From the NCBI GenBank assembly GCA_963719035.1, contig CAVRAO010000006.1, positions 128,001 through 192,000 of the forward strand: DNA of 64,000 bases, in the 5' to 3' direction. Made by a program: the position numbers and the translations under genes. Positions 14,741 through 48,144 of this stretch are shown piece by piece. This DNA is from Methanobacteriota archaeon. Its GTDB lineage: Archaea; Halobacteriota; Bog-38; Methanoflorentales; Methanoflorentaceae. Every line of letters starts with the position of its first letter. Positions within the stretch are counted from its first letter, which is position 1. Below the pieces are notes generated by a model. It saw nothing but the letters and a program-made list of their open reading frames with translations. It ran no database searches and was not told the origin of the DNA.

Positions 14741-16051
14741 ATGCTCGCAGTTATGACGATCGCAGGATCGGACTCTGGCGGTGGCGCCGGAATCCAAGCC
14801 GATGTGCGCACCTTTGCTGCTCTCGGCGTGTATGGAACCTCAGTCATAACAGCGATTACCGCACAAAACACTCTCGGCGTCGTTAATGCATTCAATTTAC
14901 CTCCTGAAGTTGTCGTTGCGCAAATGAATGCGGTTTTGTCCGACATCGACATTCGATGCGTAAAAACGGGTATGCTCCCGACTGTCGAAACTGCAGAAGC
15001 CGTCGTTGATGTGCTTTCGCGGCGCGATATTCCGATCGTAGTTGATCCCGTCATAGAGGCCGAAGCTGGGGGGAAACTGATGGCAGGGGGGCCAAAAGAC
15101 ATCCTTGCGCAACTTTTGCCTAATGCAGCAGTCGTGACGCCGAACATTCGAGAGGCGGAGGCGATTTCAGGCATCGCCATACATAGCTTCGACGATATGA
15201 AGCGCGCCGCGTGTGAAATCTTTGCCCTCGGCCCGAAATCAGTTGTTGTTACCGGAGGCCATTTGAGTGGAACGGACGTTTTGTACGATGGCGATTTTAA
15301 ACTGCTCCGCGGCACGTTGATCAAGGCGGGAACCCACGGGGCAGGATGCACTTTCTCAGCGGCAGCAGCCGCCTTTCTCGCTAAAGGACATTCAGTAAGC
15401 CAAAGCGCATTGATGGCTAAGGCGTTTGTCATCGAAGCAATCAAAAACAGCGAAAGTGTTGGGTCAGGGTCCGGAGTGGTAAACCAAGTTGCAGCAACGT
15501 TAGATGCGGCCGAACGTTATCTCACGTTGCTCGATGTAGATGCGGGGCTCCGCACCATCAAGACTATAAACTCGAACCTTATACCTGAGGTCGGCAGCAA
15601 CTTAGCGATGGCAATTTCGCGCGCTAAGAGGGTAGCAGATGTTGCTGCAGTGAAGGGACGAATTGTGAAAATCAGAGGGACAATTAAACCTGTTGGGTGT
15701 GTGGCATTTGGAGCAAGCCGCAATATGGCACGAGTGGTCCTGACTGCTTTGCAGTACGACCCCGCTACAAAGAGCGCCATGAACGTGCGACGTTCAGACG
15801 AAGTTGTCGAAGCCTGCCAAGAACTCAACCTCGTAGCGGAAGACTTCGATAGAGCGGAAGAACCTAGGAGAGAAGTCGAAGGGCGGGGAACCGCACGCGC
15901 AATAGAACGTAGCATGAAACACGGCACGGGCGTCCCCGACGTCATATTCGGCCTTAGTAGTATAGCGAAGGAACCGACGGCGTATATACTGGGTCATTCA
16001 GCGCAGAACGTAGCCGAGAAAGTTGCTAAAATTTCATCGACGATAAGATAA
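14741..16051 (+). CDS. thiD: ThiD-ThiN fusion (HMP/HMP-P kinase plus ThiN domain)
   Basis: [36 protein letters not shown]; C-terminal [15 protein letters not shown] ThiN domain. TATATAAG at 14711 suggests a leaderless mRNA. Confidence 0.93.
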
Positions 16052-16103
16052 TTAGCTAAAACGTATCTCAGCTTAAACAAGAAAAAGAAACGGAGGTGGT
16101 TTC

Positions 16104-16304
16104 ACGGGAAGCATCAGACCAACTTACATTAAAAGCGTATCAGCAGAGCTGCTCCGCGGACACGGCGAGATATTCAGCTCTGATTATGAAAAGAACAAGC
16201 TGCTCGTGTCGAAGTACACGAACATCGAAAGCAAGAATATTCGAAATCGGGTTGCCGGATATATTACGCATAGAGTAGAAATCGGCAACAGGAAAAAATC
16301 ATGA
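16104..16304 (+). CDS. rps17e: 30S ribosomal protein S17e (eS17) with ACG start codon; not in ORF track
   Basis: Frame reads (ACG)GSIRPTYIKSVSAELLRGHGEIFSSDYEKNKLLVSKYTNIESKNIRNRVAGYITHRVEIGNRKKS. GGAGGTG SD at 16092-16098; stop overlaps dapA start (ATGA). Confidence 0.93.
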   Translation, partial: TGSIRPTYIKSVSAELLRGHGEIFSSDYEKNKLLVSKYTNIESKNIRNRVAGYITHRVEIGNRKKS

Positions 16305-17176
16305 AATTCGAGGGCGTATATTGTGCTATGGTTACGCCATTTACGAACAAAGACGAAATCGACGTCGAAGGGATGCGTTCCAACATCGCATATCTTCAGA
16401 AGGAAGGCGTTGCAGGTTTGGTGCCTTGTGGTAGCACAGGCGAATCTTCCACGTTGACGTTCGATGAGCACAAGAAGCTAATTGATGTGACAGTTGACGC
16501 GGCAAGCGTTCCTGTAGTTGCTGGGACAGGATCCAACAGCACTTCAGAGGCAATTGAGCTGACACGCCACGCGCAAGATGCAGGCGCAGAAGCATCTCTA
16601 CAGATAGTCCCTTATTACAACAAACCGATGAAAAGCGGATTAATCAAACACTTTGGCGCTATCGCAGAAGCGTGCGATATTCCGCTCGTTTTATACAACA
16701 TTCCTGGTCGTACCGGGATTAATATGGATCCTGAAACGATCAGCACGCTTGCCCACGAGCACAACAACATAGCGGCGGTGAAAGAGGCAAGCGCGAACTT
16801 CAGCCAGATTTCAGACATTATAAAGCTTACCCAAGATCTCGATTTTTGCGTCATTTCAGGGGATGATGGACTCACCCTTCCTATGATGGCGCTAGGGGCT
16901 ACAGGGGTGATCTCTGTTACTGGAGATATCTTTCCGAAGCTGATGGGGCAACTAACACAGTTCTGCCTTGAAGGCAACTTTGAAAAAGCACGCGAGGTGC
17001 ATTATCGACTAGCCCCGCTTTTTAAAGCGCTCTTTATCGAGACAAATCCTATTCCAATCAAAAAAGCATGTGATTTGCTCGGACTTGCAGGCGGACCGCT
17101 CCGATTGCCCCTTACTTCGATGGCAGAACCCAACGTCGCGAAGCTCAAAGCGACGCTCGCGGCCTACAAAGACTGA
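16301..17176 (+). CDS. dapA: 4-hydroxy-tetrahydrodipicolinate synthase
   Basis: GSTGES, PYYNKP, LYNIPGRTG, VKEAS, ETNPIPIK. Confidence 0.97.
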   Translation: MKFEGVYCAMVTPFTNKDEIDVEGMRSNIAYLQKEGVAGLVPCGSTGESSTLTFDEHKKLIDVTVDAASVPVVAGTGSNSTSEAIELTRHAQDAGAEASLQIVPYYNKPMKSGLIKHFGAIAEACDIPLVLYNIPGRTGINMDPETISTLAHEHNNIAAVKEASANFSQISDIIKLTQDLDFCVISGDDGLTLPMMALGATGVISVTGDIFPKLMGQLTQFCLEGNFEKAREVHYRLAPLFKALFIETNPIPIKKACDLLGLAGGPLRLPLTSMAEPNVAKLKATLAAYKD

Positions 17177-17205: not shown

Positions 17206-17937
17206 ATGACACCAAACGACAAGATAGCAGTTGCTGTGACCGGCGCTTGTGGCCGGATGGGACGGATGATTATCGACAACGTAACACAAGCGCCTGATAT
17301 GACACTCGTGGCCGCTTTTGACAAGCAGAGCTGTAACTCTGAGGTCATAGAAGCGTCAAAACTTGCTGAGACACTAAGAAGCGTAAGCCCCGACGTCTTG
17401 GTCGATTTCACCGTCGCTTCTTCATCGGTCGAAATCATCAAAACAGCCGCAAGCGCTGGAGTACGCCTCGTCGTCGGAACAACTGGATTCACTCCCGAAC
17501 AACGTGCAGAAGCGAAAAAGGTGATCGAAGGCCAAGTAGCAGCGATAATCTCCCCGAACTTTTCGATCGGCGTTAACGTGTTCTTTCAATTGGTTAAAAG
17601 TGCGTCAGAGAGTCTTCCAAGCGCAGCATACGCCGCTGAGCTCATTGAGGCACATCATAAACACAAAATCGATGCTCCGAGCGGGACGGCAGTGAAAGCA
17701 ATCGATATCATCAAAGAGGTCGATCGTTCGCGGTCGATAGGATCCTATTCTATACGCGCAGGGGATATCGTAGGCGATCATTCAGTGTTGTTCATCGGAG
17801 ATGGCGAACGGCTTGAGATTAGCCATCAGGCTCACAGCAGACAGGCATTTGCCAGCGGCGCGATGCTAGCTACTAGATTTATAGTGAAGCAGCCGCCGGG
17901 ATTATATTTAATGGATGATCTAATGGCTTCGATCTAA
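17206..17937 (+). CDS. dapB: 4-hydroxy-tetrahydrodipicolinate reductase
   Basis: GACGRMG, VGTTG, EAHHKHKIDAPSGTA, RAGDIVGDH. Confidence 0.97.
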   Translation: MTPNDKIAVAVTGACGRMGRMIIDNVTQAPDMTLVAAFDKQSCNSEVIEASKLAETLRSVSPDVLVDFTVASSSVEIIKTAASAGVRLVVGTTGFTPEQRAEAKKVIEGQVAAIISPNFSIGVNVFFQLVKSASESLPSAAYAAELIEAHHKHKIDAPSGTAVKAIDIIKEVDRSRSIGSYSIRAGDIVGDHSVLFIGDGERLEISHQAHSRQAFASGAMLATRFIVKQPPGLYLMDDLMASI

Positions 17938-22033: not shown

Positions 22034-22169
22034 GCCTCGGTGGCTCAGCCTGGAAGAGCGATTGACTTGTAACTGTATGCGCAAAACGTTGCGCATCCAA
22101 ACGCTACTGGTACTCAAGATTGCGGAGCAAGTTATCAATAGGTCGGGGGTTCAAATCCCTCCCGGGGCT
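22034..22169 (+). tRNA. tRNA-Thr(TGT) with 62-nt intron (22072-22133) at position 37/38
   Basis: Acceptor GCCTCGG/CCGGGGC, anticodon stem ATTGA/TCAAT, TGT at 22068-70, GTTCAAATC T-loop. BHB motif: CTTG/CAAG helix with TAA and TTA bulges. T-tract follows. Confidence 0.93.
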
Positions 22170-31307: not shown

Positions 31308-31379
31308 GTCCTGGTGGGGTAGTGGATATCCTATGAGCCTGCGGAGCTCAAGACTCGGGTTCGAATCCCGGCCGGGACG
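31308..31379 (+). tRNA. tRNA-Arg(GCG)
   Basis: GTCCTGG/CCGGGAC acceptor, TGAGC-CT GCG GA-GCTCA anticodon arm, GGTTCGAATCC; TTTATA box upstream. Confidence 0.95.
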
Positions 31380-31792
31380 CTCCATTCATACCTAAAACAA
31401 CTCTACAAAGGGTTACGCGCGGGAACAACCGCTAAACTAGCATTAGAAGTTCACCTAGGAAAGCAAAGCTGTTACCTACTTTTTTGCGATTTTTTCCTAA
31501 AGCTTGCCGCAAGCGATAGGTTTGGCATTATTTGATAGCGGTGGTCCCGACGACATCTCCAGCCCATATGTAAGAGAGGGTGGGCTTAAAAAACCTAAAA
31601 CACTTCGTAAATCGTCTATAACCTCTTCTAGAATTGCCAGCATTTCCCATTGTGACTGTGATCAAGTGCCAAATCTGCATCCTTAAGCTAAGCCCTGCTT
31701 GAAATCGTAAAGGTGCACAATGCGTGTGTGTCGAAAGATATTAGCTCTCGAAAAATCAAAAAAAGACGTTTAGAGGGATTGCAGACCCTACG

Positions 31793-46072: not shown

Positions 46073-47263
46073 ATGACAATACTTGCATTTCAGCCTTTTT
46101 CTGGCGCTTCAGGGGATATGCTCGTCGGAAGTCTCATCGATCTTGGCGCCGACGCATCCGCCGTTCGAGAGAGCATGGAAGCTGCTGCCAACGTCGACGT
46201 TGAGATCTACGAGGTGAGCAAATCGGGCATACGTGCAACGCAAGTCACCATCGTCGCCGAGGCGGGGCCGCTTGCTTATCGAGAGCTTATGAACGTGCTT
46301 AAATCTTGCGAGCTCAGTCCACATATAGTCGCTGACGCGAGTGCGATATTTGAGATTATTGCGAACGCAGAAGCAGCCGTACATGGTGTTCAAAAAGAAG
46401 AGCTCGAGTTCCACAAAATAGGTGCTCGGGATGCCATTGCAGACGTAGTCGGTGCTTGCACGGCCATGTCACTTCTCAACGTTGACTCAATATTCACAAC
46501 CCCCATATTCGTTGGCGGTGGGTCGTTAGAGACCGATCACGGGCTTCTCCCGATCCCGGCTCCTGCAACTGCCGCAATACTAGCCAAATACCACTTGATA
46601 ACTCGTGGAGGGCCTGTGGAAGGAGAGCTGCTGACCCCAACGGGTGCAGCTATTCTCGCCTTTTTTACGGGAATTTCAGACGTTTTTTTGCCCCAAATGA
46701 CCATTGAACGCGTGGGTTATGGCGCAGGATTTCACGACTTTTCTCACCCAAACGTTCTGCGTGCTACGCTTGGTCAGAGCGATGAGGGTCTGCTTGAAGA
46801 TGATGTCCAAGTGCTCGAAACTAACGTGGACGACGTGACAGGAGAGGTGCTTGGAAATCTGGTCGAGGGGCTCCTCGAAATAGGCGCTCTGGACGTTGCA
46901 ATAGTGCCCACGACCGGGAAAAAAAGCAGAACCGGGCATCTTATCCAAGTGATAGCCCGCCCCGCCGACTCCAATAGATTGACAAAAAAGATAATCGAAG
47001 AAACGGGCAGTTTGGGCGTGCGGATCATGCCGACGCGTCACAGACTCATAGCTTTACGGCGCAGTGAAGCCGTAACGGTTCGTATCGGTAGCGAGTCCCA
47101 CACAATCAGCGTAAAAGTTGCCACAGATCAACACGGCACTGTACTAAACGTCGCTGCTGAGTTTGACGACGCTGCGAAACTTGCCAAAAGACTCGGCATC
47201 CCAGTCAAACACGTTATCAGGGTAGCTGAACAAGAGGCTTGGGCTCGACTTAACAGCAGTTAG
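46073..47263 (+). CDS. larC: Nickel-pincer cofactor biosynthesis protein LarC family (TIGR00299)
   Basis: [40 protein letters not shown]. Confidence 0.92.
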
Positions 47264-48021
47264 CACGTTTGATTCTGTTTTGTACGTTTATGCTCAGTTA
47301 ACGCCTCTGTAATCGTTATTTCACCTATCGCAACTCTTTTCGCAAGCTGTCTCGAGATCGTTGTTCGCCCTTCTGAGAGTTCCCTACTCCTCTCTTGAAT
47401 CCACCTTATCTCGCCCTTCGAAGGGAGGATCTCTTGGTGCCCCACGCGTACTCCTTGCGTGTACGCGATGTTTATAGCGGCGACTATGTCGGAGATCGCG
47501 GCCCCGCCCGTGCCCTTTCCGAGGTACGGAGAAGTCCCGCTTTCATCGACGAGTTCGACTGGTATCCCCTGGGCCACTAACGAGTTTGCTAAACGCATGC
47601 TCGCGAGGCGAGCCCCATGTCCAATTCGTACAAGTATGTCAGAATATGTCTGCTTGATTCTCTCTATTACGCCAACGGCCTGCCCCACGGGAACACGATA
47701 AACCGCTTCGACGATACCATTAGAGAGAACAGCAATACCAGGCTCTTCCCCCGGATCAATGCCGATAACGGCGCACCCACGAAAAGCGCCATTCCTAAGA
47801 AGTCTGATTGCTTCATTCACCGTCGTCTCAGGATCAGACGCCACTACAACGTTGGGAAAGGTGATCGCGCTCGCCTCCTCTTTAGAAGTTATCACGACGC
47901 CGATTTCACGCCCTATCGCGTCGCTTGGCGCAATAGTTACAAATTTAAGCCCCTTTTCGCGAAGCGTTTTGGTTATGTCCTGGAAAAGCGCGAAGTCCGT
48001 AGTTGCTAGGGCGATGTGAAT
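47260..48021 (-). CDS. Conserved euryarchaeal hypothetical protein (RNase H-like GIDPG motif); probable ATT start
   Basis: IGIDPGEEPGIAV, RIGHGA, VDESGTSP. Frame stays open 42 codons upstream of GTG 47895 to ATT 48019-48021, which follows a GGAGGGG SD. Confidence 0.75.
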   Translation of the reverse strand: MHIALATTDFALFQDITKTLREKGLKFVTIAPSDAIGREIGVVITSKEEASAITFPNVVVASDPETTVNEAIRLLRNGAFRGCAVIGIDPGEEPGIAVLSNGIVEAVYRVPVGQAVGVIERIKQTYSDILVRIGHGARLASMRLANSLVAQGIPVELVDESGTSPYLGKGTGGAAISDIVAAINIAYTQGVRVGHQEILPSKGEIRWIQERSRELSEGRTTISRQLAKRVAIGEITITEALTEHKRTKQNQTC

Positions 48022-48144
48022 TCTTGCCCCTCCACTCTGTAGTTGAGGGACGAACCTTTATAACCCTAACTCTCCATTAGGCTGTAGTTAACGACAATCG
48101 CGTCGTTTCTCTCTATCGGATTTGCTTTGAGGTTCTAAACACTG

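Follow-up and report, generated by a model that had tools for sequence, protein, structure and literature searches.

A probable near-cognate ACG start codon in the archaeal ribosomal protein gene rps17e and weak starts at the same position across its class

In a 64,000-nucleotide stretch from a Methanobacteriota archaeon of the class Bog-38 (family Methanoflorentaceae; GenBank assembly GCA_963719035.1, contig CAVRAO010000006.1, positions 128,001 to 192,000 of the forward strand; hereafter the window), the gene for ribosomal protein eS17, rps17e, carries ACG at the codon where the initiator methionine belongs. Based on our comparative analysis, rps17e is probably translated from this near-cognate ACG by the initiator methionyl-tRNA (Met-tRNAi), with initiation driven by a strong Shine-Dalgarno site and the weak start kept by selection. 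As judged from the related genomes, the weak eS17 start appears to be a conserved trait of the whole class and not an accident of one genome. Likewise, rps17e appears to belong to a small group of genes that, in this lineage, use AUU, AUC, AUA, ACG or CUG as start codons.

The anatomy of the locus can be read directly from the plus strand of the window. The heptamer GGAGGTG (16092-16098) is followed by a spacer of five nucleotides (16099-16103) and by ACG (16104-16106), the C of which is position 16105. From ACG the frame runs through 66 codons, T/M-GSIRPTYIK..., to a TGA at 16302-16304, the whole gene occupying 16104-16304. Upstream the frame is closed by an in-frame TAA at 16074-16076, 30 nucleotides 5' of ACG, and none of the nine codons separating the two is ATG, GTG or TTG. 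Within the frame the earliest canonical start codon is a GTG at codon 35, and rps17e is therefore missing from a list of open reading frames (ORFs) that begin at the common start codons and encode at least 40 amino acids. The TGA overlaps the ATG of dapA (16301-16303), forming ATGA. Every one of these elements is as the initial annotation had described it. The 66-residue product matches the Pfam family Ribosomal_S17e (PF00833) with 37.9 bits against a cut-off of 22.8, and its residues 2-11 align exactly with the archaeal N-terminus Met-Gly-x-(I/V)-(R/K)-P, residue 1 falling on ACG, a codon that is no recognised start. A hexamer coding score trained on the long ORFs of the same genome is +20.0 for this frame and between -10 and -64 for the five others. 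In a genome-level search with PF00833, the whole genome (2.19 Mb in 13 contigs) returned this gene, at 35.1 bits, as its one match; the second rps17e copy that the initial annotation had proposed looking for was not found there.

That ACG is more than chance follows from the comparison of the class with its outgroups and not from a single sequence. In the collection searched, the class comprises 24 species genomes of one family and two genera, described by their record titles as metagenome-assembled genomes from bogs, fens, peat and sediments. We found rps17e in 21 of them, the three without a match being 61-86% complete. At the codon aligned with Met1, these 21 genomes have ACG (12, including the window), ATA (7), ATC (1) or CTG (1), in each case a single mismatch from AUG, and the class has a conserved GGAGG(T/G)G ahead of this codon. 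Nineteen of these genomes lack any in-frame ATG, GTG or TTG from the upstream stop to the Met1 codon. The outgroups, 49 genomes of 25 families of the same phylum (an initial 9 with 40 added), have only canonical codons at the aligned position (ATG 41, GTG 6, TTG 2), and a non-canonical one-mismatch codon at Met1 is thus present in 21/21 class members versus 0/49 outgroups. A scan of metagenome contigs for eS17 returned 80 loci. Thirteen of these are 81-100% identical to the query and read ACG (10) or ATA (3) but never ATG, whereas the other 67 read ATG (53), GTG (8), TTG (4) or ATA (2). The two ATA loci among these 67, L276 and L288, come from a different lineage (about 60% identical), in which their relatives have GTG at Met1; an in-frame GTG lies nine nucleotides upstream of the ATA in both, and their start is ambiguous.

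The distribution of these codons on a species tree points to repeated switching. In a tree of 23 class genomes, built by a quick search from three concatenated proteins (1,027 columns), ATA marks one genus and ATC the basal branch of the other; most remaining genomes carry ACG, and a single one carries CTG. A second appearance of ATA is in the three closest relatives of the window's genome, which together with it form a clade of four with support of 100. At least four changes of start codon are needed to account for this pattern, and three of them (ATA/ATC to ACG, ACG to CTG and ACG to ATA) require two substitutions. Taken one step at a time, each of these three passes through ATG or through a codon that mismatches AUG twice (ACA, ACC or CCG), and ATG occupies the Met1 position in none of the 34 class sequences sampled. 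Provided that the gene remained functional throughout, its start codon probably went through ATG several times and did not keep it; exchange of alleles among populations may also be a source of the codon pattern. The class-to-outgroup contrast, the 13 of 13 class-like metagenome loci and the tree together lend good support to the near-cognate initiation proposed in the initial annotation.

The frame is also under strong purifying selection. Across codons 2-64 of rps17e, the median pairwise ratio of nonsynonymous to synonymous substitution rates (dN/dS) was 0.059 with a median dS of 0.72 (151 pairs). Codon 1 is invariant in the 16 distinct ACG-type sequences (16/16), while Pro6 uses four codons and Thr7 is ACG, ACA or ACT. 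Codons 2 and 3 change only synonymously (codon 3 is AGT in 7 and AGC in 9), and they are therefore probably read by the ribosome. The invariant third base of codon 1 fits a constraint on a start codon.

The Shine-Dalgarno site at 16092-16100, GGAGGTG extendable to GGAGGTGGT, can pair with the genome's own 16S rRNA 3' end (...GGATCACCTCCT) through seven Watson-Crick pairs, one G.U pair and one further possible A-U pair, about nine in all. The five-nucleotide spacing lies within the 4-8 nucleotides that are commonest for canonical starts behind the same heptamer genome-wide; our survey of those starts covered spacings up to 9 nucleotides and found them at 2-9. With its CAT anticodon, A1:U72 and an anticodon stem holding three G-C pairs, the initiator tRNA looks ordinary, and an odd one was rejected as the cause. 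Loss of the initiation factor aIF1 was rejected as well, given its presence in 21 of 24 class genomes, the three without a match being 59-67% complete; the aIF1 gene of the window's genome itself starts at ATG. Neither an alignment fold of 19 eS17 leaders (0 pairs) nor a single-sequence fold (z = -0.31) gave a sign of regulatory RNA structure. A frameshift from the GTG at 16096, inside the Shine-Dalgarno site, was also discarded: the locus has no slippery site, and this GTG is missing from those relatives in which the heptamer is GGAGGGG.

What the sequences show is the anatomy of the locus and its conservation, the lack of canonical alternatives, the purifying selection and the repeated codon switches; beyond this, we infer the following course of events. 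The long Shine-Dalgarno site would pair with the 16S rRNA 3' end and place ACG in the ribosomal P site, where the ordinary initiator Met-tRNA, with its CAU anticodon, would pair with ACG despite one mismatch. Initiation there would yield the usual Met-Gly-Ser-Ile-Arg-Pro N-terminus, and ribosomes finishing eS17 could reinitiate at the overlapping ATG of dapA. The weak start would most likely be kept by selection for a low or conditional rate of initiation; selection would disfavour AUG, and the weak start may serve a regulatory purpose.

Five further genes in the genome probably start in a similar manner. A scan of coding potential combined with Pfam was used to find genes with a conserved domain that extends upstream of the first canonical start codon, and the set was assembled gene by gene; in five cases AUU, AUC or AUA starts behind strong Shine-Dalgarno sites were confirmed in relatives. 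One of them lies in the window and encodes a 253-residue protein without a Pfam or NCBIfam family (47260-48021, minus strand). Its ATT (48021-48019) stands five nucleotides after a GGAGGGG (48027-48033, minus strand), the first canonical codon is 42 codons downstream, and the start codon in 23 class loci is ATT (10), ATC (12) or ATA (1). For grpE, every readable locus (21/21) has ATT, 16 of them from the window's genus and 5 from the other genus; in the latter, an in-frame TAG lies between the Shine-Dalgarno site and the ATT, one codon 5' of the ATT. The ATT is retained although the identity of GrpE between the genera is only about 55%. The gene for a TrkA_N-DHH-DHHA1 protein has ATT (14) or ATC (3) at its start position, with an in-frame stop one codon before ATT in six loci. 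An MptD-like dihydroneopterin aldolase (PF04038) begins with ATA in 5/5 genomes sampled and matches PF04038 at full length only with that start, and a DUF460 gene has ATT or ATC behind GGAGGT(G) in 6/6.

None of the class members examined has a canonical codon at the start of any of these genes. Among outgroups, grpE has an in-frame ATG 5' of the conserved region in 5/5, and the one aldolase outgroup has ATG or GTG. The gene for the 253-residue protein has ATA or ATC behind GGAGG(T/G) in 10/10 genomes of one other family of the phylum, and 2/4 outgroups lack a canonical start for the TrkA_N-DHH gene. The capacity for weak starts therefore predates the class and reaches beyond it, whereas the eS17, grpE and aldolase cases look specific to it.

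Several points weigh against initiation at ACG as a conserved, selected trait. The organism is uncultured, and the interpretation is founded on evolutionary comparison as opposed to protein or ribosome-footprint data. ACG is not included among the start codons of NCBI table 11, and aIF1 of Sulfolobus solfataricus rejects AUU in vitro, according to a review. The related genomes of the class are not independent samples. An in-frame GTG occurs in two class loci, at -24 and 5' of the Shine-Dalgarno site in L019, and at -9 as part of that site in L022, and one metagenome variant, L239, has TTG immediately 5' of ACG. The corresponding public protein, P0006, is of the ACG type with the upstream TTG and reads 'MTGSIRP...'; the L239 lineage could have regained a canonical start one codon upstream. 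Two RNA runs, X17 and X19, gave zero coverage of this organism's ACG. Lastly, a crude scan for near-cognate codons behind Shine-Dalgarno sites genome-wide found 11/53 against about 6 expected, without clear enrichment, and a second crude scan that tabulated codons genome-wide likewise gave no clear near-cognate excess. Since these scans lack a statistical excess, the set of weak-start genes is likely small.

Given these points, the other explanations of the ACG have to be weighed. The initial annotation offered a base-call error as an alternative, and an assembly of 13 contigs in which at least one other gene, ftsY, looks broken could lend credence to an error or to a dying gene. This explanation has virtually no probability left and is already refuted: two DNA runs of separate studies (X2 and X4) have Logan contigs over position 16105 that show C and no other letter, the same ACG is present in 11 other species genomes of the window's genus and in ten metagenome contigs, and rps17e is a single-copy gene with an intact frame that purifying selection strongly constrains. 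The initial annotation also raised C-to-U editing, by which a change at 16105 would present AUG to the ribosome, as occurs at ACG starts in plant organelles. Exactly one such change would convert ACG to AUG, and the two RNA runs leave the ACG uncovered, run X17 having a contig over 16213-16370 only. However, C-to-U editing cannot yield AUG from the ATA, ATC and CTG found at the same site in relatives, and genomic ATG is absent from all 34 class sequences, whereas plant species usually have a mix of edited ACG and genomic ATG. The genomic ACG at Met1 of a conserved gene is a likeness to the plant organelles; the alternation with ATA, ATC and CTG is a difference. To our knowledge, such mRNA editing is not known in archaea. 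The soil metatranscriptome run X19 holds a 319-nucleotide contig, about 90% alike, over the start region of an ATA-type relative, and it reads ATA, not ATG, behind GGAGGGG. If this contig is derived from RNA, the near-cognate codon is unedited in the transcript, which again differs from plant organelles; DNA carry-over is possible and contigs drop rare variants. We consider editing very improbable. Somewhat less improbable is the main rival, a start at the AUC of Ile4 (16113-16115), which would produce a 63-residue eS17 devoid of its first three residues and leave ACG-GGA-AGC as untranslated leader. ATC is a table 11 start that opens a 63-residue ORF, and the NCBI record P0008 of an ACG-type relative is annotated from it as 'MRPTYIK...'. 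Nevertheless, this codon fits the spacing and the conservation less well than ACG does. It lies 14 nucleotides past GGAGGTG, beyond the 2-9 nucleotides at which canonical starts were found in a survey reaching 9; codons 2 and 3 are conserved with synonymous change only; and the Met-Gly N-terminus is conserved in those outgroups with an N-terminus of this form. Nor would an untranslated position need to hold a one-mismatch codon in 21/21 genomes, as the position of ACG does. Accordingly, we regard an Ile4 start as improbable.

If ACG is indeed the start codon, near-cognate starts might still be tolerated and not selected, with a strong Shine-Dalgarno site allowing any one-mismatch codon to work and the codons drifting. 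Such drift would be in keeping with six genes that share no common function, with the free variation of the 253-residue protein gene among ATT, ATC and ATA, with the ATA and ATC starts found for two of the genes in some outgroups, and with a leader that lacks conserved RNA structure. However, under drift ATG, GTG and TTG, each one step away, should arise and stay, and none is seen at the six positions in the class members examined; nor would drift readily keep ATT in 21/21 readable grpE loci though the protein is only about 55% identical between genera. The absence of canonical codons at the six positions and the invariance of the grpE ATT favour selection over tolerance as the probable cause, and we consider mere tolerance rather unlikely. 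A more speculative extension of selection on the weak starts, which we put forward only tentatively, is that eS17, GrpE, the TrkA_N-DHH protein, DUF460, the MptD-like aldolase and the 253-residue protein form a weak-start regulon kept by selection, in which translation would be tied to initiation fidelity (for example, through the level or state of aIF1, temperature or stress) and AUG intermediates would be purged. If true, this regulon would be an archaeal counterpart of the stringency control of IF3 and infC, acting on a set of genes instead of on a fidelity factor.

The closest known parallels are in bacteria and eukaryotes. The AUU start of the bacterial IF3 gene infC, and that of pcnB, resemble the eS17 case as conserved one-mismatch starts with a Shine-Dalgarno site in a housekeeping gene that is never AUG across a clade. 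Unlike the eS17 case, the product of infC is itself a fidelity factor and closes a feedback loop. Here the product is a ribosomal protein, and aIF1, the archaeal fidelity factor, has a gene of its own that begins at ATG, so that such a loop is lacking; in addition, the domain is Archaea, the codon ACG is no table 11 start, and four near-cognate codons have been switched among. The possibility raised in the initial annotation, of an infC-like sensor that tunes dapA and dapB, finds no support in that form. Two things weaken it: at least six unrelated genes, eS17 among them, have weak starts, and the aIF1 gene itself begins with ATG. Near-cognate initiation in eukaryotes (CUG, ACG, GUG and AUU) is similar in that the initiator tRNA accepts one mismatch, the product begins with Met, and the factors e/aIF1, e/aIF1A and e/aIF2 are homologous. 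In eukaryotes, however, the sites are chosen by scanning and Kozak context and give an alternative isoform or an upstream ORF, while here the site would be fixed by Shine-Dalgarno pairing and would be the sole start of an essential gene.

Within the archaea there is little precedent. Two reviews give AUG, GUG and UUG as the archaeal start codons. In ribosome profiling of Haloferax volcanii, about 30% of the putative alternative start sites were near-cognate and were set aside as possible false positives (PMC7261190). This is the sole printed hint we found of archaeal initiation outside AUG, GUG and UUG; the sites there are mostly alternative or internal, unlike the primary starts of conserved genes discussed here, for which the evidence is evolutionary. 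In a study of Methanosarcina mazei, CTG was reported as the start of 5% of new small ORFs. Searches of a literature collection without supplements turned up no paper on an archaeal housekeeping gene with ACG, AUA or AUU as its conserved primary start. The weak starts across the class hint at a form of translation control not yet described in archaea.

The putative coupling to dapA that the initial annotation pointed out is real as a conserved stop/start overlap, but it is not special to the odd start codon. In 21 class loci the stop of rps17e and the start of dapA overlap as ATGA (18), GTGA (2) or TAATG (1), and the order rps17e-dapA(-dapB) is found in 19/21 class loci, the other two ending before dapA. 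The same order is shared by 9/9 outgroup loci; the arrangement therefore predates the odd start codon and is ancestral to the phylum. The overlap is the same pattern as that named in the abstract of a study of ATGA-overlap coupling in archaea (PMC6728339) and no different from it; here it is ancestral and independent of the odd start. In the window, dapA occupies 16301-17176 and dapB, third in the row, 17206-17937, both on the plus strand. Upstream, a 436-residue ORF (14741-16051, plus strand) that is kept in this place in class loci ends 52 nucleotides 5' of ACG. It may encode a ThiD/ThiN fusion of thiamine synthesis.

Other candidates for near-cognate starts were set aside. The ftsY copy of the genome (G000 C2:116099-116995, minus strand; L094) has no canonical start for 118 codons, and the ATG of its relatives (MFESL...) lies about 75 codons further upstream; it was rejected as a copy interrupted by a stop or frameshift, which could have arisen in the assembly or be truly present in the genome. 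A 392-codon frame (G000 C12:118025-119203, minus strand) lacks a canonical start for 62 codons. A near-cognate start there (C12:118025-119182) was also rejected, an out-of-frame ATG before a run of six G making a homopolymer indel more likely. A startless 69-codon frame in the window (31326-31535) proved to be tRNA-Arg(gcg), at 31308-31380 on the plus strand. For a GT2 glycosyltransferase with ATT (C10:27220-28152), the Pfam domain of which begins at residue 1, no conserved orthologue was found in five relatives. The ARPP-1 gene (C1:625-1632, ATA), C6:114755-115546 (ATA) and C11:29127-30179 (CTG), all in the window's genome, remain candidates.

Some further features of the genome were observed. 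The grpE leader has a conserved TATA-like box followed by AAGTGCAAACAT (G000 C8:302617-302700, minus strand; L121-L142, L216 and L217), an arrangement that two genomes from another family share with the class; this element may be a conserved heat-shock promoter or operator. At 22034-22169 of the window (plus strand; G000 C6:150034-150169), ARAGORN predicts a tRNA-Thr(tgt) of 136 bases that would carry an intron, and many tRNAs of the genome are found by ARAGORN only with its intron option. Identical frames occur on different contigs (G000 C2:770083-770724 and C4:15525-16166; C12:65263-65502 and C5:22804-23043), which points to repeated or redundantly assembled segments.

The odd start has practical consequences for annotation. 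In NCBI, the ATA and ATC forms of eS17 are annotated as proteins of 65-66 residues beginning 'MGSIRP...', and the public records of the ACG form are truncated, extended or started at Ile4. Genome annotation of an abundant peatland lineage may overlook such genes or give them a wrong start. Three closed, single-contig class genomes (G010, G017 and G022) scored only 90-91% complete, and marker genes such as eS17, missed by gene callers at near-cognate starts, might contribute to those scores.

For the biology of the class, the comparison suggests that an essential ribosomal protein gene has held a one-mismatch start through the radiation of the whole class, in many members as ACG, which is in no prokaryotic code table. 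That one near-cognate codon repeatedly gave way to another while ATG was never kept would be an unusually clear sign of selection on the weakness of a start. These archaea would thus offer a natural, conserved case in which to study how initiation factors set the stringency of start-codon choice in archaea, and whether that stringency is put to regulatory use.
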